A stretch of DNA of 64,000 bases from Escherichia coli. Lineage in GTDB: Bacteria > Pseudomonadota > Gammaproteobacteria > Enterobacterales > Enterobacteriaceae. The stretch lies in assembly GCF_048403405.1 (NCBI RefSeq), contig NZ_CP183129.1. One strand, written 5' to 3'. Shown piece after piece: positions 43,070-56,141 of this stretch. Each line of letters begins with the position of its first letter. The stretch's first letter is position 1. A program made the translations under genes and the position numbers. The notes beneath the pieces are model-generated. The model ran no database searches and was not told where the DNA came from. It saw nothing but the letters and a program-made list of their open reading frames with translations.

Positions 43070-43270
43070 TAATTTTTCGTTGGAGTGAAAATTATTGCGG
43101 TGAAATTTGGTAGATTTTAGTTTGAATAGAGTTATTTTAAATATTTATCTTTTTAATCAATGGATTAAATGCTCTTTAACATAATGGATGTGTTGTTTGT
43201 GTGATCCTGTAAAGTTGGTAGATTGTGACTGGCTTAAAAAATCATTAATTAATAATAGGTTATGTTTAGA
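43070..43270 (+). promoter_or_regulatory. CRISPR leader (AT-rich, promoter and spacer-acquisition signals)
   Basis: About 200 bp AT-rich sequence ending ...aatcattaattaataataggttatgtttaga directly abutting the first repeat; degenerate repeats lie at the opposite end of the array, fixing polarity; left boundary approximate. Confidence 0.55.
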
Positions 43271-44031
43271 GTGTTCCCCGCGCCAGCGGGGATAAACCGC
43301 GTTCAGCGTTGCTGGGCTGCGCAATGGACTGGTGTTCCCCGCGCCAGCGGGGATAAACCGCGGAGTTTTCACGGAACGCACAGCGAATTATGGTGTTCCC
43401 CGCGCCAGCGGGGATAAACCGCCGATAAATTTTCGCCCCGTTTCCAGCGCCGCGTGTTCCCCGCGCCAGCGGGGATAAACCGTTCAAACTGTAGGGATCG
43501 GCAATGGTGCCGAAGTGTTCCCCGCGCCAGCGGGGATAAACCGGGGCATTAGAATAACTTAAATGGAAAAAGAAAGTGTTCCCCGCGCCAGCGGGGATAA
43601 ACCGTCAGCCAGCACATAATTTTTATAGTCAGTATTGTGTTCCCCGCGCCAGCGGGGATAAACCGAAAGAGGTTATCGAGCGATATAACGCGTCCATGTG
43701 TTCCCCGCGCCAGCGGGGATAAACCGGTGCCTGGCGTCCATCTATTCACATGCCGCGCGTGTTCCCCGCGCCAGCGGGGATAAACCGTATTGGCGACGAT
43801 GGCATACCAGGACTACTCCGTGTTCCCCGCGCCAGCGGGGATAAACCGGCTCAGCGTCTGCTCTGGTGCCTCGCCCGTGAGTGTTCCCCGCGCCAGCGGG
43901 GATAAACCGGACCGTTACGGGCGCGTTCTTGGACTTGTTGAGTGTTCCCCACATCAGCGGGGATAAACCGGACACAGAGCGCCGCTATAGCGCCTATGCC
44001 AAGAGTTTCCCGCACCAGCGGGAATAAACCA
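43271..44031 (+). CRISPR. Type I-E CRISPR array: 13 repeats of 29 bp, 12 spacers of 32 bp (the queE-ygcE array of E. coli)
   Basis: Repeat GTGTTCCCCGCGCCAGCGGGGATAAACCG at 43271, 43332, 43393, 43454, 43515, 43576, 43637, 43698, 43759, 43820, 43881, then degenerate copies at 43942 (gtgttccccacatcagcggggataaaccg) and 44003 (gagtttcccgcaccagcgggaataaacca); exact 61-bp period. Confidence 0.97.
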
Positions 44032-44500
44032 CCATATAACCCGTTATCTCTTTCTCAAGTTTTTATATTAGCTGTACTTGTAATAAGCAACATATCCACG
44101 TAACACCTCATGTTCAAAATAGTTCTCCATGTCAGAGAAGTTCACAATTATCGATACAAAAAATTAAATTTAATCAAAGTGTTATTTGTATGATTCTTAA
44201 ATCGTTAAGAAATTTTAATCTATTATTTTTTTAATATTGAATTAATGCCTGTTAATTTTTTCTTTAGAATAACAGTGTGTTTTTTAAGCTTGTTATTCAT
44301 TGATTAAGTAATAAATCTGGAAGTTTGTCTTTGTTTTGAGGCTAATGAGTGGTTTTACATAACCGTCTCTATAGGCTGTTGATGAATAGTTCTTATGAAT
44401 AAAGATATCCAGTTCATACTTTAAATGAAAATTGATAAAGTACGGTTTGCGTTGTCTTTTATTCTAAAGACATCGAGTGTAGTTAATATTCCTTGTAAAA

Positions 44501-44623
44501 ACAGGGATAAACCGAACTAGTTAAAGTTTTTATTATGTTCCCTGCATCAGCGGGGATAAACCGGACTTGTTATCATTTTTTAAGTTGTCGAACTTATGTT
44601 CCCCACGTCAGCGGGGATAACCA
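44501..44623 (+). CRISPR. Decayed satellite CRISPR array (truncated repeat, two degenerate repeats, one 32-bp spacer)
   Basis: Partial repeat cagggataaaccg (ends 44514), degenerate repeats atgttccctgcatcagcggggataaaccg (44535-44563) and atgttccccacgtcagcggggataacc (44596-44623) separated by a 32-bp spacer; preceded by about 470 bp of AT-rich leader-like sequence. Confidence 0.8.
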
Positions 44624-44669
44624 TTCAGGTATGTTCAGGCCGGGCAGTTTCCCGCCCGGTCTTCCTCAC

Positions 44670-46148
44670 TTACGCATTCGACCAGCTCTGGATCGAATCC
44701 GCATTCCCCAATTCCCCATGCATCACTTCATACGATTTTTTCAGGATTACATCAGTATGTTTGGTTAACTCCTTGAAAATGCCTTTATTCATCGCGTTGT
44801 AGCGTTTGGCGTTGCTCTCAACAGGCATAAAGATATCTTTCACGCGAACCATTTTGTCGACAGCCGTTGCGTAATCCGGGTATAGCCCCAGACCTACCGC
44901 CGTATTAATCGCTGCCCCCAGGCTTGCACAACCATTAATGGCGTTACGGCGTGCCGGAAGGTTGAACACGTCGGCAAAAATCTGCATAAACAGATCGCTG
45001 TTCGAACCGCCGCCAGTAATGATCACATGCTTTGCAAAGTGATTCATTTCATTACACATATTGTCGTAATTGTTCTTCAGCGTCAGCGCCACGCTTTCCA
45101 GTATCGAACGATATATCCATGCGTAATCCATGCTGGAATCAAAGCCAATCATAATCCCGCGTTTGTACGGTTCCCACGGATTGGTCAGCCAGTCCAGCAC
45201 CGTCATCAGACCATTACAGCCTGGCGGCACACAAGACGCTTTTTTGTTGAGCAAATCTTCCGGTGAAAGATCCTGTGCTTTGGCATCCTGAATTAACGAC
45301 TCGCCTAACATGTCGCGTAGCCAGCTCACCGTCCACATGCCTTTGCGAATACCGTAACCTTCATACAGCAAGGTTTGCGGAATAGAAGACATAATCGGCC
45401 AGTACGCTACCGGATCTTTCGGTAGTAATTTGCCGTTCATCATCAACGCGATGTAAGTGCCAAGAGAAATTACCGCAGTTTCATCATCCAGTAACCCGGC
45501 TCCCAGTGCTTCTACCGGTTTATCACTGGTGGTACAAACAACCGGCAGCCCAGCCGGGAAATGTGTCGCCAGCGCGGCTTGAGGAGTGATATGCCCAAGA
45601 ACAGTGCCCGGCATTTGCACATCAAACAGCATATGACGGGGGATATTAAACTTCTCCATGACTGCGGCATCTTCACTCCATGCCCAGGTCTTATAATCCA
45701 CCGGCCACTGACCAAAATAGTTGGCGATATTGTCTTTAAACTCGCCGGTTAAGCGATGCGTCAGATAACCCGAAAAAGAGGTGACATATGCCACGTCAGG
45801 ATTCGTATGTTCGTAAGGGCGTGTAACGCGTGCATCCTGCCAGCTAATCAACGGCGCAGCTGGCGTGCCATCGGCTTTCAATAACGCACGGCAGCAACGG
45901 ATGGATCCCAGACCAATACCGACAATATCTTCTTTATTTCCGGCAAACTGACTCATCAAATCGTGACCGGCAAAGCATAATGATGCCCATAAATCGTCGT
46001 CAGGATGTTCTGCGGTATCGGCATCTGGCGTGTGCATCGGCTGCAATAAGCCTTTGCCTTCGCAAACCACATTACCTTCCAGATCGTACATCACCACTTT
46101 TGTGCTCTGACTTCCACCATCAATCCCTATGATGTATTTTTTCGACAT
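44670..46148 (-). CDS. ygcE: FGGY-family carbohydrate kinase (uncharacterised substrate)
   Basis: 492 aa MSKKYIIGIDGGSQSTKVVMYDLEGN...; FGGY sugar kinase fold; matches YgcE. Confidence 0.88.
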   Translation of the reverse strand: MSKKYIIGIDGGSQSTKVVMYDLEGNVVCEGKGLLQPMHTPDADTAEHPDDDLWASLCFAGHDLMSQFAGNKEDIVGIGLGSIRCCRALLKADGTPAAPLISWQDARVTRPYEHTNPDVAYVTSFSGYLTHRLTGEFKDNIANYFGQWPVDYKTWAWSEDAAVMEKFNIPRHMLFDVQMPGTVLGHITPQAALATHFPAGLPVVCTTSDKPVEALGAGLLDDETAVISLGTYIALMMNGKLLPKDPVAYWPIMSSIPQTLLYEGYGIRKGMWTVSWLRDMLGESLIQDAKAQDLSPEDLLNKKASCVPPGCNGLMTVLDWLTNPWEPYKRGIMIGFDSSMDYAWIYRSILESVALTLKNNYDNMCNEMNHFAKHVIITGGGSNSDLFMQIFADVFNLPARRNAINGCASLGAAINTAVGLGLYPDYATAVDKMVRVKDIFMPVESNAKRYNAMNKGIFKELTKHTDVILKKSYEVMHGELGNADSIQSWSNA

Positions 46149-46174
46149 GATTTTTCTCCTGTAATTTTCTGGAC

Positions 46175-47452
46175 TTACTTGCTGCTAGCCATAGCAGGGG
46201 CGCTATCAGCAGTACGAATTTTTTGGAACAGCAAAAAGGTAAAGACGATCACCATGGCAAGCGCCGCCATGCCCATCAGCCACATATTGCGGTAGGCTTC
46301 TGCAGCGGGCAGGGTGTCTTGCCAGTAGCCGATAATCGGGTAAACGAAGACATCCGGCAGGAATCCAATCACCGAACAAATACCTACCGTGGTGCCCATA
46401 ATGTAAGACGGTGTTCTCGCTTCGCCAGGGCAGGCCCAGTACAGCCCGCGTGAGGCGTAACAGGTGAATCCCAGCAGTAAAATCAGGCCAATCCCCATCG
46501 CGACCGATTGCGGGTTAGAGTTCGTGACGAGCAGGGCAGTTAACGCCAGCAAGCCGAGTACGGAAAGGATTTGGATCACGCGGGTAGGGGATTTCACTTT
46601 GCTGTAGGTGGAGATAATGCCACCAAGTGGGCCGCACAGTGCGCGGAAGATTTTGTTGATCACAATCCCCATGTAGCTCGCCGCCACCAGCGACATGCCG
46701 TACATTTCGGTCAGATAGTTGGTGGAGTAACTCAGAATGGCGTAGATGGTGAAGACACCAAAAATCACCATGCTGCAATACCAGGTGGTGCTGATGCGCA
46801 AAACAGCCAGGATGTCGCTAAGCTGGAATGACTGTTTTTCTTCGTTATTGGTATTGCGCAGGTTGTTGTTATCGCTAACAAAAAACCAACACAAAATGCC
46901 CAGCAGAATGTAAACCACACTATAGATAATAATGACCGTTTTCAGGCTGGCGCTGTCATCCGGTGCAAAGCGAGAAAAGACCCACATGGTAAACACCGCC
47001 AGCGACATTACACCGACGCCGCGCAGCCCTTCCATCCAGCCCATAATTTTCCCTTGCTCGCTATGATCGCCCAGCAACGAGGCGGCTTTAATCGACACCG
47101 ACCACAGCATTAAAATCGTCGTTATCGCAAAGGCGACCTGAATACAGAGCATTACCCACAGCGGTGGATATGTTGCCATTAACAGACCCAGTAATCCGGT
47201 AATGATCATCGCGGAAGTAATCATTTTGCGGTGTGAAAATTTATCGGCAATAACGCCGCTGGGGGCATAAAGAATAATAGCCGCAATACCAAAGGTACTC
47301 ATTATTAAACCTATCTCGGTATTGCTGAATCCCATAAATTTCGCCATGGGAATTTGATAAATATAACGTAAATAAGCCAGGTCGAAACTAACGCCGCCGC
47401 TAAAACTAATTATCGCGAGGGTTATCCAACGGCGATATGAGTTGTGTTGCAT
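46175..47452 (-). CDS. yqcE: MFS transporter (uncharacterised)
   Basis: 425 aa, 12 predicted TM helices; matches YqcE. Confidence 0.88.
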   Translation of the reverse strand: MQHNSYRRWITLAIISFSGGVSFDLAYLRYIYQIPMAKFMGFSNTEIGLIMSTFGIAAIILYAPSGVIADKFSHRKMITSAMIITGLLGLLMATYPPLWVMLCIQVAFAITTILMLWSVSIKAASLLGDHSEQGKIMGWMEGLRGVGVMSLAVFTMWVFSRFAPDDSASLKTVIIIYSVVYILLGILCWFFVSDNNNLRNTNNEEKQSFQLSDILAVLRISTTWYCSMVIFGVFTIYAILSYSTNYLTEMYGMSLVAASYMGIVINKIFRALCGPLGGIISTYSKVKSPTRVIQILSVLGLLALTALLVTNSNPQSVAMGIGLILLLGFTCYASRGLYWACPGEARTPSYIMGTTVGICSVIGFLPDVFVYPIIGYWQDTLPAAEAYRNMWLMGMAALAMVIVFTFLLFQKIRTADSAPAMASSK

Positions 47453-47629
47453 ATCGTATTCCCATTTGTAATAGACAAAAAAAGAGAAAAGTAAGCCGCC
47501 CTTTCAGGTGGATTACTTTTCTCAGGTCTCTAGTAATTGCAATAAGAAATAACATGGAAAGTAGTGGTGTTGTGTGAGAGTAATCACGCTTCTGCTTTTT
47601 AAAATTATTTGACAATTCGAATATCACAC

Positions 47630-47645
47630 TGTGATTACGATCACA
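47630..47645. promoter_or_regulatory. Consensus CRP binding site upstream of ygcW
   Basis: TGTGAttacgaTCACA, perfect match to both CRP half-sites, centred about 130 bp upstream of the ygcW start; candidate -10 (tatgat / gataaa, 47662-47670) places it near a class II position. Confidence 0.65.
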
Positions 47646-47698
47646 TTAGCGATTATGCCCTTATGATAAAAATTATCTCCAGTTACCAGAGATAATGA

Positions 47699-47743
47699 GA
47701 AAGGTAACTTCCCTCTCGCGGGGGAAGTTACCTTTCTTTTTTT
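47699..47743 (+). terminator. Strong intrinsic terminator inside the ygcW 5' leader (candidate antitermination target)
   Basis: Perfect 15-bp stem gaaaggtaacttccc / gggaagttacctttc (47699-47713 and 47722-47736), 8-nt loop, then TTTTTTT (47737-47743), ending 24 nt before the ygcW ATG. Confidence 0.75.
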
Positions 47744-47767
47744 GCCTTACGGAAATTGGAGCTAACT

Positions 47768-48553
47768 ATGTCAATCGAATCTCTCAATGCGTTCTCAATG
47801 GATTTTTTCTCCCTGAAAGGTAAAACCGCAATTGTTACCGGCGGGAATAGCGGTTTAGGCCAGGCATTTGCCATGGCGCTGGCCAAAGCAGGCGCAAATA
47901 TCTTTATTCCAAGCTTCGTTAAAGATAACGGCGAAACAAAGGAAATGATTGAAAAACAGGGTGTTGAGGTGGACTTCATGCAGGTGGATATCACCGCAGA
48001 AGGCGCGCCGCAGAAGATAATCGCCGCCTGTTGCGAACGTTTCGGTACCGTCGATATTCTGATTAACAATGCCGGTATTTGTAAGCTGAATAAGGTGCTG
48101 GACTTCGGTCGTGCCGACTGGGACCCGATGATTGATGTGAACCTGACCGCCGCATTCGAGTTAAGCTATGAAGCTGCAAAAATTATGATCCCGCAGAAAA
48201 GCGGTAAAATCATTAATATCTGTTCATTATTCTCTTACTTAGGTGGACAATGGTCACCTGCATATTCTGCCACTAAACATGCTCTTGCCGGGTTCACCAA
48301 AGCTTATTGTGATGAACTAGGTCAATATAATATTCAGGTAAATGGTATTGCTCCGGGATATTACGCTACCGATATCACTCTGGCGACCCGTAGTAATCCA
48401 GAAACTAACCAGCGCGTTCTTGATCATATTCCGGCAAACCGTTGGGGCGATACTCAGGATTTAATGGGCGCAGCCGTATTCCTCGCAAGTCCGGCATCGA
48501 ATTATGTCAACGGACATTTATTAGTGGTTGATGGCGGTTATTTAGTGCGCTAA
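47768..48553 (+). CDS. ygcW: Short-chain dehydrogenase/reductase (SDR), uncharacterised
   Basis: Start at ATG 47768 (MSIESLNAF..., RBS ggag 7 nt upstream); NAD(P)-binding motif TGGNSGLG and catalytic YxxxK (YSATK); track start is an upstream TTG. Confidence 0.88.
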   Translation: MSIESLNAFSMDFFSLKGKTAIVTGGNSGLGQAFAMALAKAGANIFIPSFVKDNGETKEMIEKQGVEVDFMQVDITAEGAPQKIIAACCERFGTVDILINNAGICKLNKVLDFGRADWDPMIDVNLTAAFELSYEAAKIMIPQKSGKIINICSLFSYLGGQWSPAYSATKHALAGFTKAYCDELGQYNIQVNGIAPGYYATDITLATRSNPETNQRVLDHIPANRWGDTQDLMGAAVFLASPASNYVNGHLLVVDGGYLVR

Positions 48554-48622
48554 TCCATAACGGTGGTTTCTGTTTTCTCTTATTAATGATTATTCCATTT
48601 TTATTATCAGGAAGGAATTACT

Positions 48623-50077
48623 ATGTCTTTATCTCGCGCAGCGATTGTCGACCAGCTAAAGGAAATTGTTGGTGCAGATCGCGTAATTACCGATGAAACA
48701 GTATTAAAGAAGAACAGTATTGACCGTTTTCGCAAATTTCCGGATATTCATGGCATTTATACTTTGCCGATTCCGGCAGCGGTCGTAAAACTCGGTTCCA
48801 CAGAACAAGTATCCCGTGTGCTGAATTTTATGAATGCGCACAAAATTAACGGTGTGCCGCGTACCGGTGCTTCCGCTACCGAAGGTGGGCTGGAAACCGT
48901 TGTGGAAAACTCGGTGGTGCTCGACGGCTCTGCCATGAATCAAATCATTAATATTGATATTGAGAATATGCAGGCCACGGCGCAATGCGGAGTTCCGCTG
49001 GAAGTGCTGGAAAACGCGTTGCGTGAAAAAGGTTACACCACGGGGCATTCTCCGCAGTCAAAGCCGCTGGCGCAGATGGGCGGCCTGGTAGCAACCCGCA
49101 GTATCGGGCAGTTCTCCACACTCTACGGCGCAATCGAAGATATGGTCGTTGGTCTGGAAGCAGTATTGGCTGATGGCACCGTAACACGCATTAAAAACGT
49201 ACCACGCCGCGCGGCAGGCCCGGACATTCGTCACATCATCATCGGCAACGAAGGTGCATTGTGCTATATCACTGAAGTAACAGTGAAAATCTTTAAGTTC
49301 ACCCCGGAAAACAACCTCTTCTACGGCTATATCCTGGAAGACATGAAAACCGGCTTCAACATCCTGCGTGAAATCATGGTGGAAGGGTATCGTCCGTCGA
49401 TCGCTCGTTTGTATGACGCTGAAGATGGCACCCAACACTTCACCCATTTTGCCGACGGAAAATGCGTGCTGATCTTTATGGCTGAAGGTAACCCTCGCAT
49501 TGCGAAGGCGACGGGCGAAGGGATTGCTGAAATCGTGGCACGTTACCCGCAATGCCAGCGAGTGGACAGCAAGCTGATCGAAACCTGGTTTAACAACCTG
49601 AACTGGGGACCGGATAAAGTAGCTGCCGAACGTGTGCAGATCCTCAAAACCGGCAACATGGGCTTTACCACCGAAGTGTCCGGCTGCTGGAGCTGCATTC
49701 ACGAAATCTACGAAAGCGTTATTAACCGTATTCGTACCGAGTTCCCGCACGCCGACGACATCACCATGCTGGGCGGTCACTCCTCTCATAGCTATCAGAA
49801 CGGCACCAACATGTACTTCGTCTACGACTACAACGTCGTTGACTGTAAGCCGGAAGAGGAAATCGACAAGTACCACAATCCGCTCAACAAAATCATCTGC
49901 GAAGAAACCATTCGCCTCGGTGGTTCGATGGTGCACCACCACGGCATTGGTAAACATCGCGTTCACTGGAGCAAGCTGGAACACGGCAGCGCGTGGGCGT
50001 TGCTGGAAGGGCTGAAAAAGCAGTTCGATCCTAACGGCATTATGAATACGGGTACTATCTATCCGATTGAAAAATAA
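48623..50077 (+). CDS. ygcU: FAD-linked oxidase (alkyldihydroxyacetonephosphate-synthase / D-lactate dehydrogenase-like)
   Basis: 484 aa; FAD-binding PCMH-type domain; matches YgcU. Confidence 0.88.
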   Translation: MSLSRAAIVDQLKEIVGADRVITDETVLKKNSIDRFRKFPDIHGIYTLPIPAAVVKLGSTEQVSRVLNFMNAHKINGVPRTGASATEGGLETVVENSVVLDGSAMNQIINIDIENMQATAQCGVPLEVLENALREKGYTTGHSPQSKPLAQMGGLVATRSIGQFSTLYGAIEDMVVGLEAVLADGTVTRIKNVPRRAAGPDIRHIIIGNEGALCYITEVTVKIFKFTPENNLFYGYILEDMKTGFNILREIMVEGYRPSIARLYDAEDGTQHFTHFADGKCVLIFMAEGNPRIAKATGEGIAEIVARYPQCQRVDSKLIETWFNNLNWGPDKVAAERVQILKTGNMGFTTEVSGCWSCIHEIYESVINRIRTEFPHADDITMLGGHSSHSYQNGTNMYFVYDYNVVDCKPEEEIDKYHNPLNKIICEETIRLGGSMVHHHGIGKHRVHWSKLEHGSAWALLEGLKKQFDPNGIMNTGTIYPIEK

Positions 50078-50170
50078 TGTGTCAGGCAGCGTTCCGCGAT
50101 GACGGAGCGTTGCCTTTTCGGCTTCTCAGGCGAGAAGCCGTTCTTATTACCGGACAATGAAGGGGTAAAG

Positions 50171-51508
50171 ATGAACACTTCACCGGTGCGAATGGATGAT
50201 TTACCGCTTAACCGTTTTCACTGTCGAATTGCTGCGCTCACTTTCGGCGCACACCTGACCGACGGTTATGTTCTCGGCGTCATTGGTTACGCCATTATTC
50301 AGCTTACGCCCGCCATGCAACTGACGCCGTTAATGGCGGGAATGATTGGCGGCTCGGCGCTCCTTGGTTTGTTTCTTGGCAGCCTGGTTCTTGGATGGAT
50401 CTCCGACCATATTGGTCGGCAAAAAATCTTCACCTTCAGCTTTTTGCTGATTACGCTCGCTTCGTTTTTACAATATTTTGCCACCACGCCAGAGCATCTT
50501 ATAGGACTACGCATTTTGATTGGCATTGGTCTGGGAGGCGATTACTCAGTAGGTCACACTTTGCTGGCTGAATTTTCTCCGCGCCGCCATCGCGGTGTTT
50601 TGCTGGGCGCATTCAGTGTGGTGTGGACCGTAGGCTATGTGCTGGCAAGTATTGCCGGACATCACTTTATTACCGAAAGCCCGGAGGCCTGGCGCTGGCT
50701 GCTGGCATCAGCGGCGTTACCAGCCTTGCTGATTACGCTGCTACGTTGGGGAACGCCAGAATCGCCACGCTGGCTACTGCGCCAGGGGCGTTTTGCAGAA
50801 GCTCACGCTATCGTGCATCGCTACTTTGGTCCCCATGTTTTACTGGGCGATGAAGTGGCAACGGCGACCCATAAACACATCAAAACCTTGTTCTCTTCGC
50901 GCTACTGGCGGCGCACGGCGTTTAACAGCGTCTTCTTTGTCTGCCTCGTAATCCCATGGTTTGTGATTTACACCTGGCTGCCAACTATCGCGCAAACTAT
51001 TGGTCTGGAAGATGCGCTGACAGCTAGCCTGATGCTTAATGCGTTGTTAATTGTGGGCGCGCTGCTGGGATTAGTTCTGACGCACCTGCTGGCACATCGC
51101 AAATTTTTGCTGGGAAGTTTTTTGCTGCTGGCGGCAACGCTGGTAGTGATGGCCTGTTTGCCTTCCGGTAGTTCATTAACGCTGCTGCTTTTTGTTCTCT
51201 TCAGCACCACCATTTCGGCAGTCAGTAATCTGGTGGGCATTTTGCCTGCGGAAAGTTTTCCTACTGACATTCGCTCGCTGGGCGTCGGTTTTGCCACCGC
51301 CATGAGTCGGTTGGGCGCGGCAGTAAGTACGGGCCTGCTGCCGTGGGTGCTGGCGCAGTGGGGAATGCAAGTCACCTTATTGCTCCTGGCGGCAGTGTTG
51401 TTGGTTGGTTTTGTCGTGACCTGGCTATGGGCACCAGAAACCAAAGCACTCCCGCTGGTGGCGGCGGGAAATGTAGGAGGTGCGAATGAACATTCTGTTA
51501 GCGTTTAA
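50171..51508 (+). CDS. ygcS: MFS transporter (sugar-porter-like, uncharacterised)
   Basis: Start at ATG 50171 (MNTSPVRMDDLPL..., RBS aggggt); 12 TM MFS protein; the track start is 24 codons upstream. Confidence 0.85.
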   Translation: MNTSPVRMDDLPLNRFHCRIAALTFGAHLTDGYVLGVIGYAIIQLTPAMQLTPLMAGMIGGSALLGLFLGSLVLGWISDHIGRQKIFTFSFLLITLASFLQYFATTPEHLIGLRILIGIGLGGDYSVGHTLLAEFSPRRHRGVLLGAFSVVWTVGYVLASIAGHHFITESPEAWRWLLASAALPALLITLLRWGTPESPRWLLRQGRFAEAHAIVHRYFGPHVLLGDEVATATHKHIKTLFSSRYWRRTAFNSVFFVCLVIPWFVIYTWLPTIAQTIGLEDALTASLMLNALLIVGALLGLVLTHLLAHRKFLLGSFLLLAATLVVMACLPSGSSLTLLLFVLFSTTISAVSNLVGILPAESFPTDIRSLGVGFATAMSRLGAAVSTGLLPWVLAQWGMQVTLLLLAAVLLVGFVVTWLWAPETKALPLVAAGNVGGANEHSVSV

Positions 51509-52265
51509 AGCCGAACCGGATGCCGGAATGCTGGCGGAAAAAGAGTGGCAGGCGGCGGCTCAGGGTAATAGCGGACCGGATGTTTCGCTTCTGCTAAGTT
51601 TACTCGGTGCTGATGAACAGGCTGCCGCCGCGCTGCTGTTGGCGCAGAGAAAAAACGGTACGTCGATGTCTTTAACCGCGTTGAGCATGGGGAATGAACG
51701 GGCGTTGCACTGGCTGCGCTATCTCATGGCTCTTGGGTTTGAGGAAGCTGTATTGCTGGAGACGGCGGCAGATCTGCGCTTTGCGCCGGAATTTGTCGCT
51801 CGCCATATTGCCGAATGGCAGCGTCAGAATCCGCTGGATCTGATAATTACCGGCTGCCAAAGCAGCGAAGGGCAGAATGGGCAAACGCCATTTTTGCTGG
51901 CGGAAATGCTGGGCTGGCCCTGCTTCACCCAGGTGGAGCGTTTCACTCTCGACGCGCCGTTTATCACCCTCGAACAGCGTACTGAACATGGGCTGCGCTG
52001 TTGCCGGGTTCGCTTGCCTGCGGTGATTGCCGTGCGTCAGTGTGGTGAAGTGGCCTTGCCAGTACCGGGAATGCGCCAGCGAATGGCTGCGGGGAAAGCA
52101 GCAATTATCCGTAAAACTGTTGCTGCCGAATCGCCAGCGATGCAGTGTCGGCAACTGGCAAGAGCAGAGCAACGACGCGGAGCGACGCTGATTGATGGGC
52201 AAACGGTAGCAGAAAAAGCGCAAAAGCTATGGCAGGACTATTTACGCCAAAGGATGCAGCCATGA
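51486..52265 (+). CDS. ygcR: Electron-transfer flavoprotein beta-subunit paralog (FixA-like)
   Basis: MNILLAFKAEPDAGMLAEKEW...; ETF-beta-like; start ATG 51486 with RBS aggagg; overlaps ygcS 3' end by 23 nt. Confidence 0.82.
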   Translation: MNILLAFKAEPDAGMLAEKEWQAAAQGNSGPDVSLLLSLLGADEQAAAALLLAQRKNGTSMSLTALSMGNERALHWLRYLMALGFEEAVLLETAADLRFAPEFVARHIAEWQRQNPLDLIITGCQSSEGQNGQTPFLLAEMLGWPCFTQVERFTLDAPFITLEQRTEHGLRCCRVRLPAVIAVRQCGEVALPVPGMRQRMAAGKAAIIRKTVAAESPAMQCRQLARAEQRRGATLIDGQTVAEKAQKLWQDYLRQRMQP

Positions 52266-53122
52266 ATATCGCAATTGTGACAATAAATCAGGAGAATGCC
52301 GCAATAGCGAGCTGGCTGGCAGAACAGGATTTCAGCGGTTGTACCCTGGCACACTGGCAGATTGAACCTCAGCCCGCTGTGGCGGAACAGGTACTGGATG
52401 CGCTGGTGGAACAGTGGCAGCGAACGCCTGCGGACGTTGTTATCTTTCCGCCGGGAACGTTTGGCGATGAACTGTCGACCCGGCTGGCCTGGCGTTTACA
52501 TGGTGCAAGCATCTGCCAGGTGACTTCGTTAGATATTCCAACCGTAAGCGTGCGCAAATCCCACTGGGGAAATGCGCTAACGGCGACGCTGCAAACAGAA
52601 AAACGCCTGCTATGCCTTTCCCTGGCGCGTCAGGCGGGAGCAGCGAAAAACGCCACGTTGCCCTCTGGTATGCAGCAACTGAACATTGTCCCAGGTGCGC
52701 TTCCCGACTGGCTGGTTAGCATAGAGAATCTGAAAAATGTTAGCCGCGACCCATTAGCTGAAGCCAGACGGGTGCTGGTGGTGGGGCAGGGCGGAGAGGC
52801 AGATAACCAGGAAATCGCTATGCTGGCAGAAAAGCTGGGAGCCGAAGTGGGCTACAGTCGGGCGCGAGTGATGAACGGTGGCGTTGATGCTGAAAAAGTG
52901 ATTGGTATTTCCGGACATCTGCTGGCACCTGAGGTGTGCATTGTTGTTGGCGCTTCCGGCGCAGCAGCGTTAATGGCGGGCGTACGCAATAGCAAGTTTG
53001 TGGTGGCGATTAATCATGACGCCAGCGCGGCGGTATTTTCACAGGCAGATGTTGGCGTGGTTGATGACTGGAAAGCGGTGCTGGAGGCACTGGTGACAAA
53101 CATTCACGCAGATTGCCAATAA
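52262..53122 (+). CDS. ygcQ: Electron-transfer flavoprotein alpha-subunit paralog (FixB-like)
   Basis: MNIAIVTINQENAAIASWLAEQ...; ETF-alpha-like; ATGA overlap with the ygcR stop. Confidence 0.82.
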   Translation: MNIAIVTINQENAAIASWLAEQDFSGCTLAHWQIEPQPAVAEQVLDALVEQWQRTPADVVIFPPGTFGDELSTRLAWRLHGASICQVTSLDIPTVSVRKSHWGNALTATLQTEKRLLCLSLARQAGAAKNATLPSGMQQLNIVPGALPDWLVSIENLKNVSRDPLAEARRVLVVGQGGEADNQEIAMLAEKLGAEVGYSRARVMNGGVDAEKVIGISGHLLAPEVCIVVGASGAAALMAGVRNSKFVVAINHDASAAVFSQADVGVVDDWKAVLEALVTNIHADCQ

Positions 53123-53170
53123 CGTGTTGCCGGATGATCCTGCCGATGGTTCTGGGCTGGGGATTTGTAA

Positions 53171-53204
53171 GCCTGATAAGACGCGTCAAGCGTCGTATCA
53201 GGCG
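53171..53204. repeat. REP element (part of a BIME-like cluster spanning about 53125-53235) between convergent ygcQ and ygcP
   Basis: gcctgataagacgcgtcaagcgtcgtatcaggcg palindrome flanked by further partial REP copies (gccggatg..., gtcggatgtggcgtg...). Confidence 0.7.
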
Positions 53205-53268
53205 CTGAATGTCGGATGTGGCGTGCAGCCTACAAATCACACAAATTCAATTCGTTACGATTATCCCG

Positions 53269-53844
53269 TCAAAGCAATTTTTTCGCTAGCGTCCAGACCC
53301 CGGTATTCGTGGTGGAAAGCGCCACAACACCCGCGTTAATCGCATTACGCGCATCTTCTTCATCGCACACCAGCCCGCCGGCAATCAGCGGTTGGCGGAT
53401 TTTCTCCGTCACCCAGCCCAGCACTTTGGGCATACAGCCTGGCAGGATCTCAATACAATCCGGATTCGATTGCGCAACTTGCTTATCAATGTTGTGAAAC
53501 GAAATCGAATCAACAATAAACAGGCGATGAATACAGAAAAAACCTTCCGCTCTTGCTGCTTTCAGCATCGATGCTTTCGTGCTGATAATGCCGTCCGCCT
53601 CAGTCACCAGTTTCAAAAACTGAATCACCACTTCTTTATTTGACGCGCCTTCCAGCAAATCAACATGAATAAAAGCATATTTTCCGGCGTTCTTAATCTT
53701 TTTAACGATATTACTGATGGTGCAGATATTGCCGTACAACACGGAAATAAACTGGCATTCAGAGTCGATTGCCAGTTGCAGGCTGGCATTATCTTTAACG
53801 GCAGCAATCACCGGATTCTGGCGGAGCAGGTGTAAGAGGGGCAT
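53269..53844 (-). CDS. ygcP: GlpP-like glycerol-3-phosphate-responsive transcription antiterminator family protein
   Basis: 191 aa MPLLHLLRQNPVIAAVKDNASLQLAIDSECQFISVLYGNICT...; resembles the B. subtilis GlpP antiterminator family. Confidence 0.85.
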   Translation of the reverse strand: MPLLHLLRQNPVIAAVKDNASLQLAIDSECQFISVLYGNICTISNIVKKIKNAGKYAFIHVDLLEGASNKEVVIQFLKLVTEADGIISTKASMLKAARAEGFFCIHRLFIVDSISFHNIDKQVAQSNPDCIEILPGCMPKVLGWVTEKIRQPLIAGGLVCDEEDARNAINAGVVALSTTNTGVWTLAKKLL

Positions 53845-53860
53845 AAATTATCCTTATTAT

Positions 53861-54121
53861 TTATCCAAAACGGTAGGTGATGCCGAATCCGGAAGGCGGA
53901 TAGCGCCACTGTTGTAGTGTTGATTCGTCGCACAGCAAACGGCAGGTGCCACACTCCAGGCAGCCGCGATAATCAACGCGTAAGTCACCTTCCGGTGTGA
54001 GCGAAAAAAGACCAGCCGGACAAGCGTTAATCAACCGTTGTACCGTCTGACGCTCAACGGAGTCAGCCGGAACAATGTGCGGCGCATCGGCAACGCGCCA
54101 GAGATTACGGGCTACAGACAT
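53861..54121 (-). CDS. ygcO: Ferredoxin-like protein (FixX-like)
   Basis: 86 aa from the ATG at 54121 (MSVARNLWRV...); Cys cluster CxxCxxC (CLECGTCRLLC); track ORF extends upstream. Confidence 0.8.
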   Translation of the reverse strand: MSVARNLWRVADAPHIVPADSVERQTVQRLINACPAGLFSLTPEGDLRVDYRGCLECGTCRLLCDESTLQQWRYPPSGFGITYRFG

Positions 54122-55383
54122 CGCAGACTCCTGATAACATCGCCCGCCAGATGCCACAGGCCGTGACGACGTAAATGACGCCAGAATAACTGGCGCAGCG
54201 GTGGAACAGGTTTATCACCCTGATCCCATAAATCACGGGAAATATCCTGCATTAACGCAGGCCATGCACGGTACCATCCAGGGCGTTGCAAAAGCGCCGG
54301 AACATGCTGATAACGTTGTAGAACATCCCATAGCAGGCTGCGCTCTATGTTGTGATGATAAAGCGCAAACAGATTTTGCGGCTCGCGGTGCTGGCAGGCG
54401 CTTATCAGCGTTTGTGCCGCCGCCTGCGCGCCAGTCAGCGCCATATCCATGCCGCGCACGGAAATTCCGGTATTGACGCAACTGCGCAACGCATCGCCCA
54501 GCAGCAGCCAGCCGTTACCGGCGTATTGCACCGGCATACTGTGCAAGCCACCTTCTGGCACCAGATGCGCACCATACTCCAGTGATTCCGTGTTTTTGAT
54601 AAGCGGGCGCACTGCCGGATGCGTTTTAAAGCGAGCCAGCAGCTCGCTTGCCGGAACACGACTTTGCGTAAGGGAAGAGAGCGGGCAAACAATCCCTAAC
54701 GAGAGCGTTTGTTGATTAGTATAAAGAAATGTGCCGCCGGGTAAGTCATCACAGATCCTGCCGCTGAACAGCAACGCTGCGCCTTCGTTATTCTCCAGAT
54801 GAAAACGTTCTTCAATAGCGGATGTTTCCAGCGACAGCACTTCTTTGATCCCCAACGCCATCGCTTCGCCAGCAGGACGAGTCACTAACCCGTGACGTTC
54901 AGCCAGGACGCTGTTGGCACCTTCTGCCAGCACCACATAACGGGCGCGGAGAATATCGTCACCACAAATGACACCACACACCCTGCCGTTTTCTTCATAC
55001 AGCGCATCCACCGTCGCACCAGGGATGCATTCGACACCTTCTTTTTCGGCTTCGGCAACCAGCCACGGATCGAACCGTGCACGTAATACGCTCCAGGATT
55101 CACCGCCGGGCTGTAAGCTGGAAAACGTCGTTGCGCCATCCGGCGTTAACAGGGAAAGGCTTTCGTGAGTGATGCGTCGTTCAAGAGGCGCGGTCAGATG
55201 AAATTGTGGGAGGAGTTCCGCGAGCGCATGGGTGTATAAACGCCCGCCGGAAAGGTTTTTACTGCCGGGAATTTCAGCTCGTTCCAGTAACAGAACGGAC
55301 AAACCTGCCCGCGCGCAGCGTAAAGCACAAGCGGTGCCTGCTATACCCGCACCAATAATAATAATGTCGCAGTCGTCTTCCAT
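54112..55383 (-). CDS. ygcN: FAD-dependent oxidoreductase (FixC / ETF-quinone oxidoreductase-like)
   Basis: FAD-binding motif IIIIGAGIAG near the N-terminus; start uncertain (ATG at 55383 or 55395, GTG at 55413). Confidence 0.82.
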   Translation of the reverse strand: MEDDCDIIIIGAGIAGTACALRCARAGLSVLLLERAEIPGSKNLSGGRLYTHALAELLPQFHLTAPLERRITHESLSLLTPDGATTFSSLQPGGESWSVLRARFDPWLVAEAEKEGVECIPGATVDALYEENGRVCGVICGDDILRARYVVLAEGANSVLAERHGLVTRPAGEAMALGIKEVLSLETSAIEERFHLENNEGAALLFSGRICDDLPGGTFLYTNQQTLSLGIVCPLSSLTQSRVPASELLARFKTHPAVRPLIKNTESLEYGAHLVPEGGLHSMPVQYAGNGWLLLGDALRSCVNTGISVRGMDMALTGAQAAAQTLISACQHREPQNLFALYHHNIERSLLWDVLQRYQHVPALLQRPGWYRAWPALMQDISRDLWDQGDKPVPPLRQLFWRHLRRHGLWHLAGDVIRSLRCL

Positions 55384-55460
55384 GTCGTGCCCCATATATC
55401 CAGAGCGCAACACCCTAACATAGCGTTACTTAAGGGAAATTGACCGCCGACACACTCTTA

Positions 55461-55826
55461 TCATTCGCCGCGATAGATGCAACCTGCGGTGCAGGTTTCT
55501 TTCACCATAACCGCACTTAACAGCGGAACAACCGGTTTAACCTGATCCCAAATCCATTTTGCTAAAACCTCGCTGGTCGGGTTTTCCAGGCCAGGAATAT
55601 CATTGAGATAATAGTGATCGAGGCGCTCGTAGGTTGGCTTAAACGCCGCTTTTAGTTCAGCGAAATCGATAATCCAGCCCGTATGCGGATCGACTTCCCC
55701 GGTAATTTCCAGTCGCACCATAAAGGAATGCCCGTGCAGGCGACCACATTTATGCCCTTCCGGGACGTGTGGTAAGCGGTGAGCGGCTTCGAAGGTGAAA
55801 TCTTTAAATAACGTGGTGGACATCAT
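55461..55826 (-). CDS. queD: 6-carboxy-5,6,7,8-tetrahydropterin synthase
   Basis: 121 aa [35 protein letters not shown]... matches QueD; track ORF extends 28 codons upstream. Confidence 0.93.
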
Positions 55827-56141
55827 AATTTCTCTACATGACGATAAAACCGCCGTAGAGTACCGGAAAGGCTGTTTTTTCGCATTATCTAAAACGACTT
55901 TGTTGCGCAAAATCGCTGATTTATCTTAATGATTGGCTAAATTCATTTGTTTTTCATTGGGTTGGTTAATCTGTTTTGTTGTTAAAGACTATTGCTAAAA
56001 CAGGTTAGTCGATTTGGTTATTAGTTATCGCTATCCCGTCTTTAATCCACACCGTTCACCCCGTTAACCTTACCTTCTCTTCTGTTTTATGGGCGCTGAC
56101 AGGGCGCAGAAACAGCTTTGCTTACTGGAACATAACGACGC

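Follow-up and report, generated by a model that had tools for sequence, protein, structure and literature searches.

The ygc gene cluster of Escherichia coli occupies positions 44670-55383 of a 64,000-nucleotide stretch of DNA (RefSeq assembly GCF_048403405.1, contig NZ_CP183129.1), the whole of which is called the window here. Its organising feature is an antiterminator of the GlpP family, YgcP, together with a structured leader RNA that stands at the head of each of two divergent operons, and it is likely, from the features described below, that YgcP-dependent antitermination controls the cluster. The leader RNA family, which crosses phyla, a distinct subfamily of electron-transfer flavoprotein (ETF) and a catabolic flavoenzyme resembling alkyl-dihydroxyacetonephosphate synthase (AGPS) are new here; the catabolic regulon and GlpP-type antitermination are of known kinds. 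Clusters of the ygc type are probably linked to quaternary-amine metabolism.

Two leaders flank a CRP site between the divergent operons

The intergenic region between yqcE and ygcW is 315 bp long and holds three features.

47472-47542, minus strand: yqcE leader RNA element, a terminator hairpin and U-run with an AAUUACUAGAG box upstream
47628-47648, strand-neutral: CRP site acTGTGAttacgaTCACAtta between the divergent operons, with the perfect site TGTGATTACGATCACA at 47630-47645 as read from the sequence
47677-47750, plus strand: ygcW leader RNA element, an AGUUACC box, a 19-bp terminator hairpin and a U-run, ending about 20 nt 5' of the ATG at 47768

The ygcW hairpin, located by the terminator scan at 47697-47738 with its U-run reaching 47746, contains 19 pairs, 8 of them G-C, and the leader folds with an energy of -44.4 kcal/mol (z=-8.1). 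On folding, the yqcE leader gives the hairpin GAGAAAAGUAAUCCACC...GGGCGGCUUACUUUUCUC, followed by U7. A covariance model, R1, built from the ygcW leaders of other species, scores the E. coli ygcW leader at 66.6 bits and the yqcE leader at 52.8 bits (E about 2e-8 with filters off); the two leaders are paralogous. No further copy was detected by R1 in 40-60 kb with filters off, including upstream of ygcN-ygcO-ygcP, or in the whole window with default filters.

Binding of CRP at the ygcW/yqcE site has been measured in vitro with a Kd of 1.7 nM (PMC12871828, a 2026 preprint), the same intergenic site was predicted by PhyloScan (PMC1794230) and yqcE-ygcE is listed as Crp-activated (PMC8085971). The position of this site between the divergent operons and the listing of yqcE-ygcE bear out the view, put forward in an initial annotation made from the sequence, that the cluster is of a catabolic type.

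The leader RNA family and its tie to YgcP

The comparison across phyla covers 82 loci with a relative of YgcU, of which 80 were taken from one scan of representative genomes, matching such a relative in at least 559 species, and 2 came from contig look-ups. The leader is about 70 nt long and comprises a terminator and an alternative antiterminator hairpin, both of which are supported by covariation. The sequence 5' of the ygcW orthologues follows the pattern AGTTACTAGAG-N3-5-GAGAAAAGTAACTTCC-loop-GGAAGT-N-GCTTTTCTC-T8, and this consensus is nearly unchanged in Enterobacterales, Photobacterium, Halobacillus, Thalassobacillus, Geosporobacter, Dethiosulfatibacter, Syntrophomonadaceae and Sporomusa, a span of Gammaproteobacteria, Bacilli, Clostridia and Negativicutes.

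In the terminator helix (16 pairs) 95.9% of the alignment cells are paired and 9 of the pairs show compensatory changes, a result reached by 0 of 500 shuffles, and slid controls are 56-69% paired. The antiterminator helix (7 pairs) has 98.1% of its cells paired, against 17-56% in the slid controls, and 3 of its pairs show compensatory changes; the cells paired, the cells with changes on both sides and the covariation score were each reached by 0 of 500 shuffles. The antiterminator is formed by pairing of an upstream AGUUACU with AGUAACU, and since the latter sits within the 5' arm of the terminator the two structures are mutually exclusive. E. coli itself carries one compensatory change, with AGUUACC paired to GGUAACU. 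A search of Rfam with the intergenic region returned no family, only sub-threshold chance matches.

YgcP is a full-length member of PF04309 (G3P_antiterm), its residues 12-184 aligning to positions 1-173 of the 173 in the model (E=1.6e-62), and it also matches PDB 3kts (E=1e-27). The conserved AGUUACUAGAG box with its 7-bp alternative helix (3 compensatory pairs) co-occurs strictly with this protein: counted by locus, both are present in 56, YgcP alone in 0, the element alone in 6 and neither in 21 (Fisher p=1e-14). The element-only loci lie mostly on cut contigs, and those with neither are chiefly from Desulfobacterales. The antiterminator gene had been mentioned only in passing in the initial annotation; the complete PF04309 match and the leaders found in 56 of 56 loci with YgcP give it substance. 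In Bacillus subtilis GlpP together with glycerol-3-phosphate disrupts the terminators in the 5' untranslated regions of glpD, glpFK and glpTQ (PMC9604022; PMC10573289). By analogy, YgcP would bind the leader RNA in response to a ligand, and the presence of a kinase of its own, YgcE, in the cluster suggests a phosphorylated effector other than glycerol-3-phosphate.

A match to the yqcE leader position is present in every Enterobacterales locus that spans the yqcE/ygcW intergenic region, and in Photobacterium too the element precedes yqcE. In Clostridia a second leader copy is seen inside the operon, between the kinase gene and ygcU (loci L065:9848-9915, L071:4469-4536, L063:9782-9872 and similar), which would place the part of the operon encoding the flavoenzyme, the ETF and a second oxidase (FAD2, described below) behind a second checkpoint.

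A scan of metagenomes with the leader pattern gave 119 contigs, of which 88 are E. coli and about 14 phage-like; the informative loci are L099, L112, L169, L190 and L203. The phage-like contigs from this 20-base pattern carry many short co-directional open reading frames (ORFs) and no ygc homologues. Those numbered L086, L096, L107, L110, L115, L118, L140, L147, L158, L162, L165, L168, L194 and L200 failed the covariance model and are probably chance matches.

The genes of the cluster and their conservation

The ten genes of the cluster are as follows.

ygcE, 44670-46148, minus strand: FGGY-family kinase, 492 aa, second gene of the yqcE-ygcE operon
yqcE, 46175-47452, minus strand: MFS transporter, 425 aa, with weak matches to MFS subfamilies and a leader element upstream
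ygcW, 47768-48553, plus strand: SDR dehydrogenase, 261 aa, first gene of the ygcW-U-S-R-Q operon
ygcU, 48623-50077, plus strand: FAD-linked flavoenzyme of the alkyl-dihydroxyacetone phosphate (DHAP) synthase type, 484 aa, with Pfam domains FAD_binding_4 and FAD-oxidase_C
ygcS, 50099-51508, plus strand: MFS transporter, 469 aa
ygcR, 51486-52265, plus strand: divergent ETF beta subunit, 259 aa, overlapping ygcS by 23 nt and ygcQ by 4 nt
ygcQ, 52262-53122, plus strand: divergent ETF alpha subunit, 286 aa
ygcP, 53269-53844, minus strand: GlpP-family RNA-binding antiterminator, 191 aa
ygcO, 53861-54121, minus strand: FixX-like ferredoxin, 86 aa, overlapping ygcN by 10 nt
ygcN, 54112-55383, minus strand: FixC/YdiS-like FAD oxidoreductase, 423 aa, a probable ETF:quinone oxidoreductase

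The ORF calls show all ten reading frames to be open over their full length; each corresponds to a RefSeq gene of a strain with 100% identity, and none is flagged as a pseudogene in the RefSeq annotation of that strain. The ten consecutive intact y-genes of the initial annotation are thus confirmed, and so are the families to which it assigned them (FGGY kinase, SDR, FAD-linked oxidase, two MFS transporters, ETF beta and alpha, FixC- and FixX-like proteins and antiterminator), which agree with the matches to profiles and to structural relatives. In the RefSeq record of K-12 MG1655 all ten are named "putative ...". A full-text search of open-licence papers and preprints found no published pathway for the ygc genes, so that the earlier statement that their substrate and role are undefined still stands; the matches consisted of promoter and CRP catalogues, gene lists and a paper on engineering with YgcS, whose overexpression increases the formation of nicotinamide mononucleotide from nicotinamide (PMC8601175).

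None of the ten proteins reaches an NCBIfam curated cut-off. YgcE scores at most 142 bits against the FGGY models, whose cut-offs are 380-912 (142 against 380 for XylB, 139 against 528 for LsrK), and among solved structures it comes closest to the AI-2 kinase LsrK (E=6.5e-29), with glycerol kinases next; on these scores YgcE is best described as an FGGY member without assigned specificity. YgcW, at 350 bits, falls slightly below the cut-off of 369 of the KduD model. YgcS matches the aromatic acid, sugar porter and organic cation subfamilies of the MFS, each below the cut-off. For YgcR no ETF beta model gives more than 45 bits, although solved ETF beta chains are matched with E=6e-12, and YgcQ gives 75 bits against ETF models and E=7e-23 against human ETF alpha. 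YgcO scores 84 bits against the FixX model (cut-off 166), and YgcN 382 bits against PRK10015 and 366 against the FixC subfamily, both below the cut-offs.

The start of ygcS is ambiguous, PGAP placing it at 50099 (469 aa) and the K-12 annotation, with 445 aa, at the equivalent of 50171. A 9-bp GC-rich hairpin lies at 50119-50140, between both candidate starts.

The region matches in 5425 of 5426 complete E. coli genomes, in 5061 of them with at least 80% in one piece, and the identity of the cluster across E. coli genomes is 95-99%. The window is part of the E. coli chromosome, and its positions 44000-56000 are 100% identical to strain MS 69-1 with the exception of one 3-bp indel (12001 vs 12004 aligned bases), which falls within the yqcE/ygcW intergenic region, 47453-47767. 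Next to the cluster, between queE and ygcE, is a type I-E CRISPR array at 43270-44039 with 13 repeats GTGTTCCCCGCGCCAGCGGGGATAAACCG and a period of 61, one unit fewer than in the otherwise identical MS 69-1. Beyond cysH the annotation of MS 69-1 shows a frameshifted cas3 and a hok/gef gene.

Synteny of the cluster is kept through Klebsiella, Citrobacter, Enterobacter, Cedecea and Budviciaceae. Among the 82 loci ygcW is present in 74, ygcE in 71, ygcR in 60, ygcQ in 59, ygcP in 56 and yqcE in 45; ygcS (40) and ygcN (31) occur in Enterobacterales only. The conserved core is YgcW-YgcE-YgcU-YgcP. Outside Enterobacterales the median identity to the E. coli proteins is 75% for YgcW, 70% for YgcU (65-76% in other phyla), 57% for YgcP and 54% for YgcE. 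The gene order in Firmicutes is P-W-E-U-R-Q, and the U-R-Q synteny is seen in 60 of the 82 loci, across phyla. The moeBA, iaaA and gsiABCD genes beside the cluster in Erwinia/Pantoea were dismissed as ordinary neighbours, and Dpp-type ABC transporters near the actinomycete and Thalassobacillus loci, which may be coincidental, were set aside.

YgcU carries the active-site residues of alkyl-DHAP synthase

The best solved relative of YgcU is AGPS, with a profile E-value of 1e-55, ahead of glycolate oxidase (6e-37) and LctD (1e-25); the structure of the Y578F mutant of AGPS (entry 4bca) is among the matches. Arg419, Tyr578 and His615-617 of AGPS, reportedly its catalytic residues, correspond to Arg262, Tyr398 and His438-440 of YgcU, and all of these are invariant across phyla (alignment A1). 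On this alignment YgcU carries the alkyl-DHAP synthase active-site residues. It lacks about 155 N-terminal residues of AGPS, the alignment beginning at about residue 158 of the latter, and its gene neighbours are solute transporters, with no lipid genes among them to match the lipid context of AGPS. The C-terminal active-site loop of YgcU reads V-H-H-H-G-I-G and is without the E-H-G motif of the D-2-hydroxyacid dehydrogenases. Assignment of YgcU as a D-2-hydroxyacid dehydrogenase was rejected on this difference and on the far better match to AGPS than to LctD.

A non-canonical ETF pair with YgcN and YgcO

ETF beta subunits carry a signature, DGDTAQ in the bifurcating group (group 2), where the threonine is 100% conserved, and DDDxNQ in the canonical group (group 1) (PMC8958531). 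The corresponding hexapeptide of E. coli YgcR is EGQNGQ and the consensus of the YgcR family is [ED]-G-[DQE]-N-[GA]-[QK], which agrees with neither. YgcQ keeps the S-R and GxSG motifs of the flavin site but has SGAAAL where canonical proteins have SGAIQH (AAAL for IQH), and in E. coli it is short, at 286 aa vs about 320. With EGQNGQ in the place of DGDTAQ, YgcRQ was rejected as a bifurcating ETF. Of the dedicated, "possibly bifurcating" ETF chain of the initial annotation the first part is supported, through the U-R-Q synteny, and the second is not.

Anaerobes have a second oxidase, FAD2, encoded after the first ETF pair, for which LctD is the best match and which shares with LctD the S/G-E-H-G motif; after it come the genes of another ETF pair, in which the signature reads DGDT[AG]Q and the alpha subunit bears a ferredoxin domain. 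FAD2 and this second ETF make up the bifurcating-type, LctBCD-like set, which belongs to the clusters of anaerobes only and is absent from E. coli.

In Enterobacterales R, Q and N are found together in 31 loci and none of the three in 14, with 0 discordant cases, and this perfect co-variation supports a functional chain from the ETF to YgcN/YgcO. The tie between the ETF and the FixC-/FixX-like proteins that the initial annotation had drawn is thereby upheld, and the composition is of the FixCX type, with a FixC-like YgcN and a FixX-like YgcO encoded together with the ETF, at scores below the curated cut-offs. Transfer of electrons from YgcU through the ETF and YgcNO to quinone would seem slightly more probable than not.

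Neighbouring genes as clues to the substrate

The first gene 3' of the leader element is ygcW in 57 cases, yqcE in 44, a BCCT transporter in 9, ygcU in 7 and an MttB-family gene or OpuA-type ABC operon in 2; three metagenome contigs (L091, L119, L190) have further MttB/OpuA-type cases behind the element. MTTB genes also flank the core in L050, L053, L057, L076, L077, L206 and L207, from Desulfobacterota and Bacillota. Directly 5' of W-U-E in SAR324 are GFA, an aldo-keto reductase, an aldehyde dehydrogenase fragment, Fae and BCCT, and the Erwinia/Pantoea/Serratia loci have YgcS, a Fae-like protein, an aldo-keto reductase and a betaine-aldehyde-dehydrogenase-like enzyme under a LysR regulator. 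Transporters of trimethylammonium solutes, found with methyl-transfer and formaldehyde-handling enzymes, point to a substrate with N-methyl groups. No recurring isomerase, epimerase or aldolase was found beside the core among the 82 loci. The minimal set of a kinase, an SDR and an AGPS-like enzyme fits a three-carbon, glycerol-like handle that would be converted to a 1-substituted DHAP.

With the AGPS residues in YgcU and a leader regulon that elsewhere includes BCCT, OpuA-type and MttB genes, the unknown polyol or sugar acid suggested in the initial annotation would narrow, as the most likely class, to a glycerol-like unit bearing a quaternary ammonium group. That the substrate in E. coli itself is such a quaternary-ammonium glyceryl compound, for instance a glyceryl-linked betaine or choline derivative, is a tentative possibility.

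Several loci encode further enzymes. A Bacillus relative (L003:1932-3281) and a Desulfopila metagenome-assembled genome (L050:16412-17773) have aspartate-ammonia-lyase-like genes, 41% identical to each other and below the aspartase equivalog cut-offs, with genes for aldehyde and alcohol dehydrogenases, or for MttB together with an aldo-keto reductase, close by. These lyase-like genes may represent a module for a head-group lyase, perhaps acting on trimethyl-aspartate; a route from homoserine betaine through trimethyl-aspartate to fumarate, read from these two loci, is a weak lead. In soda-lake and deep-lake Bacillota (L077:10004-11038, L077:14687-15538, L190:7854-8800) an element-controlled MttB/OpuA-type operon includes the gene for a PanB-like hydroxymethyltransferase that scores above its NCBIfam cut-off, and in L077, L078 and L081 a proline-racemase-like protein is encoded at the end of the MttB/OpuA-type gene block. 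Beside a full W-U-R-Q-FAD2-E-MTTB set in L207 (349-5317; GCA_900089805) there is a second, paralogous trio, in which a longer FAD_binding_4 oxidase of 561 aa and an FGGY kinase of 517 aa are joined by a GlpD-like DAO/DAO_C dehydrogenase, with an aldehyde:ferredoxin oxidoreductase and Fe-ADH 3' of it.

A proposed catabolic system and its alternatives

We would put at a little below even the chance that the cluster is one catabolic system, governed by CRP and by YgcP antitermination, in which an ETF-coupled YgcU acts in the breakdown of a quaternary-ammonium glyceryl substrate. CRP would activate both divergent promoters, those of yqcE-ygcE and of ygcW-U-S-R-Q, and both transcripts would stop at the leader terminator unless YgcP stabilised the antiterminator hairpin (AGUUACY with RGUAACU), which it would do on binding a phosphorylated intermediate formed by YgcE, much as GlpP does with glycerol-3-phosphate. 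The substrate would be taken up by YqcE and/or YgcS. YgcE would then phosphorylate a terminal hydroxyl and YgcW would oxidise the neighbouring secondary alcohol to a ketone, giving a DHAP-like compound substituted at C1, and YgcU would remove or oxidise the C1 substituent of this ketone phosphate. Electrons would pass from YgcU to the non-canonical ETF YgcR/YgcQ and, in E. coli, on through YgcN/YgcO to the quinone pool. In this scheme we infer that YgcP binds the RNA and what its ligand is, in which order the steps follow, which way the electrons flow and to what class the substrate belongs.

In a more specific and rather doubtful form of this proposal YgcE, YgcW and YgcU, as counterparts of glycerol kinase, alkyl-DHAP reductase and alkyl-DHAP synthase, would run the first steps of ether-lipid biosynthesis in reverse. 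Water-soluble glyceryl quaternary ammonium compounds would thus lose their glycerol unit, which would leave as DHAP or else as a C3 phosphate in oxidised form, under the control of the previously undescribed cross-phylum RNA element and a GlpP-family sensor of the phosphorylated intermediate. Deacylated betaine lipids (glyceryl-trimethylhomoserine and its relatives) and glyceryl derivatives of choline or betaine would be the candidates for such a route, again with some doubt.

Several observations weigh against an ETF-coupled breakdown of a quaternary-ammonium glyceryl compound. The chemistry of alkyl-DHAP synthase involves no net redox change, which leaves the requirement for an ETF unexplained. 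Of the 82 loci 21 have no ETF pair, namely those of aerobic Bacilli, those of the Erwinia/Pantoea/Serratia type and some on short contigs, and where present outside Enterobacterales YgcR and YgcQ have a median identity of only 30-32% to the E. coli proteins; with about 30% identity and neither ETF signature their cofactor content is uncertain. YgcN/YgcO, confined to Enterobacterales, are without a leader element, which leaves their co-regulation with the rest of the cluster presumptive. The E. coli cluster has MFS transporters and no BCCT, OpuA-type or MttB genes, and the quaternary-amine inference is thus carried over from other taxa; on the E. coli side it can draw on the organic-cation-type match of YgcS and on the effect of YgcS overexpression on nicotinamide conversion.

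The cluster might instead serve ordinary polyol or sugar acid catabolism, with YgcU as a polyol-phosphate dehydrogenase coupled to a bifurcating FixABCX-like chain. The pairing of an SDR with an FGGY kinase is classical for polyol catabolism, as in the ribitol and arabitol pathways, YgcW almost reaches the KduD cut-off, YgcS matches the sugar-porter family, YgcE is nearest to LsrK and xylulokinase and the R, Q, N and O genes mirror FixA, B, C and X. YgcR, however, has EGQNGQ and not DGDTAQ, the 82 loci offer no recurrent isomerase, epimerase or aldolase, the three-enzyme minimal set suits a C3 unit, YgcU has the AGPS-type residues and the leader regulon holds BCCT, OpuA-type and MttB genes with no sugar transporters, so we think this explanation unlikely. 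We give a similarly low probability to electron flow in the reductive direction, where YgcNO and YgcRQ would feed YgcU for the cleavage of a C-N or C-O bond next to the ketone, during anaerobic growth, with for example trimethylamine or an alcohol set free. In favour of this, YgcN and YgcO are paralogous to FixC and FixX, and delivery of electrons by FixABCX has been proposed for the carnitine (cai) pathway in E. coli, to whose CaiT the BCCT association forms a parallel; the ETF genes are found in facultative and strict anaerobes and are absent from aerobic Bacilli, and a leaving group alpha to a carbonyl would suit reductive cleavage. The nearest ETF-partnered relatives of YgcU (LctD, LDHD and D2HGDH) nevertheless donate electrons to ETF, and activation by CRP is typical of oxidative catabolism.

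It seems very improbable that YgcU is a dehydrogenase for D-2-hydroxyacids such as D-lactate, glycolate or D-2-hydroxyglutarate, with a private ETF, while the kinase and the SDR serve an unrelated upstream step. YgcU does have significant structural-sequence relatives in glycolate oxidase, LctD, LDHD and D2HGDH, and the order FAD-oxidase, ETF-beta, ETF-alpha is that of lctBCD. Yet YgcU has HHHGIG in place of the EHG of this group, its match to AGPS (1e-55) far exceeds that to LctD (1e-25) and it is FAD2 of the anaerobes that has the EHG, the best match to LctD and the bifurcating ETF partner. We attach equally little weight to the view that the cluster is what remains, in cryptic form, of an island that E. 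coli acquired horizontally and that no longer has a function there. The cross-phylum identity of W, U, P and E (54-75%) suggests horizontal transfer, the open-licence papers and preprints searched report no phenotype from decades of screens and E. coli YgcQ is short; against this stand the ten intact ORFs, two leaders and a CRP site of nanomolar affinity that are likewise intact, the retention of the cluster, with 95-99% identity, by at least 5061 of the 5426 genomes and a synteny that extends through Klebsiella, Citrobacter, Enterobacter, Cedecea and Budviciaceae.

Relation to known systems

The closest parallel in regulation is the GlpP/glp system of B. subtilis, in which, as here, a PF04309 protein is associated with operons that start with an intrinsic terminator in the 5' untranslated region behind a conserved box. 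Like the ygc cluster the glp regulon combines a transporter, an FGGY kinase and a flavin dehydrogenase for a phosphorylated intermediate, with catabolite control on top. The ygc ligand need not be glycerol-3-phosphate, however, and the ygc system is found in E. coli and other Gram-negatives, with a regulon of SDR, AGPS-like and ETF genes and, elsewhere, BCCT and MttB. Judged against Rfam, which has no matching family, the ygc leader is a family of its own.

With AGPS, YgcU shares the two-domain VAO-type fold family and the conserved Arg, Tyr and His-His-His loop, and the 1-substituted DHAP that the ygc kinase and SDR would yield resembles the AGPS substrate. Unlike AGPS, YgcU is cytosolic and, by its context, catabolic, and it is paired with an ETF and accompanied by transporters for hydrophilic solutes.

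The cai-linked FixABCX set, YdiQRST and the FixABCX of diazotrophs all consist, like the ygc genes, of an ETF beta, an ETF alpha, a FixC-type flavoprotein and a FixX-type ferredoxin, and a quaternary-amine link of ygc would parallel fix/cai. In contrast to these sets YgcR and YgcQ have diverged strongly (45 and 75 bits) and are without DGDTAQ. Two convergent operons share the ygc genes between them, and the enzyme served is a VAO-family flavoprotein, not an acyl-CoA dehydrogenase. LctBCD of Acetobacterium woodii (PDB 7qh2) likewise has the gene for a VAO-family FAD oxidase directly 5' of those for ETF beta and alpha, and LctD, LctB and LctC are all significant matches, but it is FAD2 and its own ETF, and not YgcU-R-Q, that truly correspond to LctBCD.

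In the erythritol pathway of Brucella and Rhizobium the FGGY kinase EryA acts before a flavin-dependent oxidation of the polyol phosphate by EryB, and isomerases are needed. The logic of an FGGY kinase followed by flavin oxidation of a polyol phosphate is common to both systems. EryB, however, belongs to the GlpD/DAO family and YgcU to VAO/AGPS, the erythritol isomerases have no ygc counterpart, and the antiterminator, ETF and betaine-type transporters of ygc-type loci are not part of the erythritol pathway.

Implications

Among the E. coli K-12 genes that lack a function, those of the ygc cluster make up one of the larger blocks, and their core is one of the most conserved unassigned catabolic modules that we have met: the identity of YgcU among E. 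coli, Clostridia, Bacilli and Desulfobacterota is about 70%, and the genomes of at least 559 species encode a relative. We know of no GlpP-type system that has been characterised in E. coli. The ygc system provides a GlpP-type antiterminator with a putative RNA target that is defined and testable, and its leader element could be used as a reporter in the search for the inducer. The BCCT, OpuA-type, MttB and formaldehyde-handling genes narrow the candidates to quaternary-ammonium compounds, which are of relevance to trimethylamine in the gut and to the marine cycling of carbon and nitrogen. An AGPS-type flavoenzyme working with an ETF in catabolism would, if true, be new enzymology, and the reversed ether-lipid route, should it exist, would be a widespread and unrecognised link from the head groups of membrane lipids to the turnover of trimethylamine and betaine in guts, sediments and the sea.

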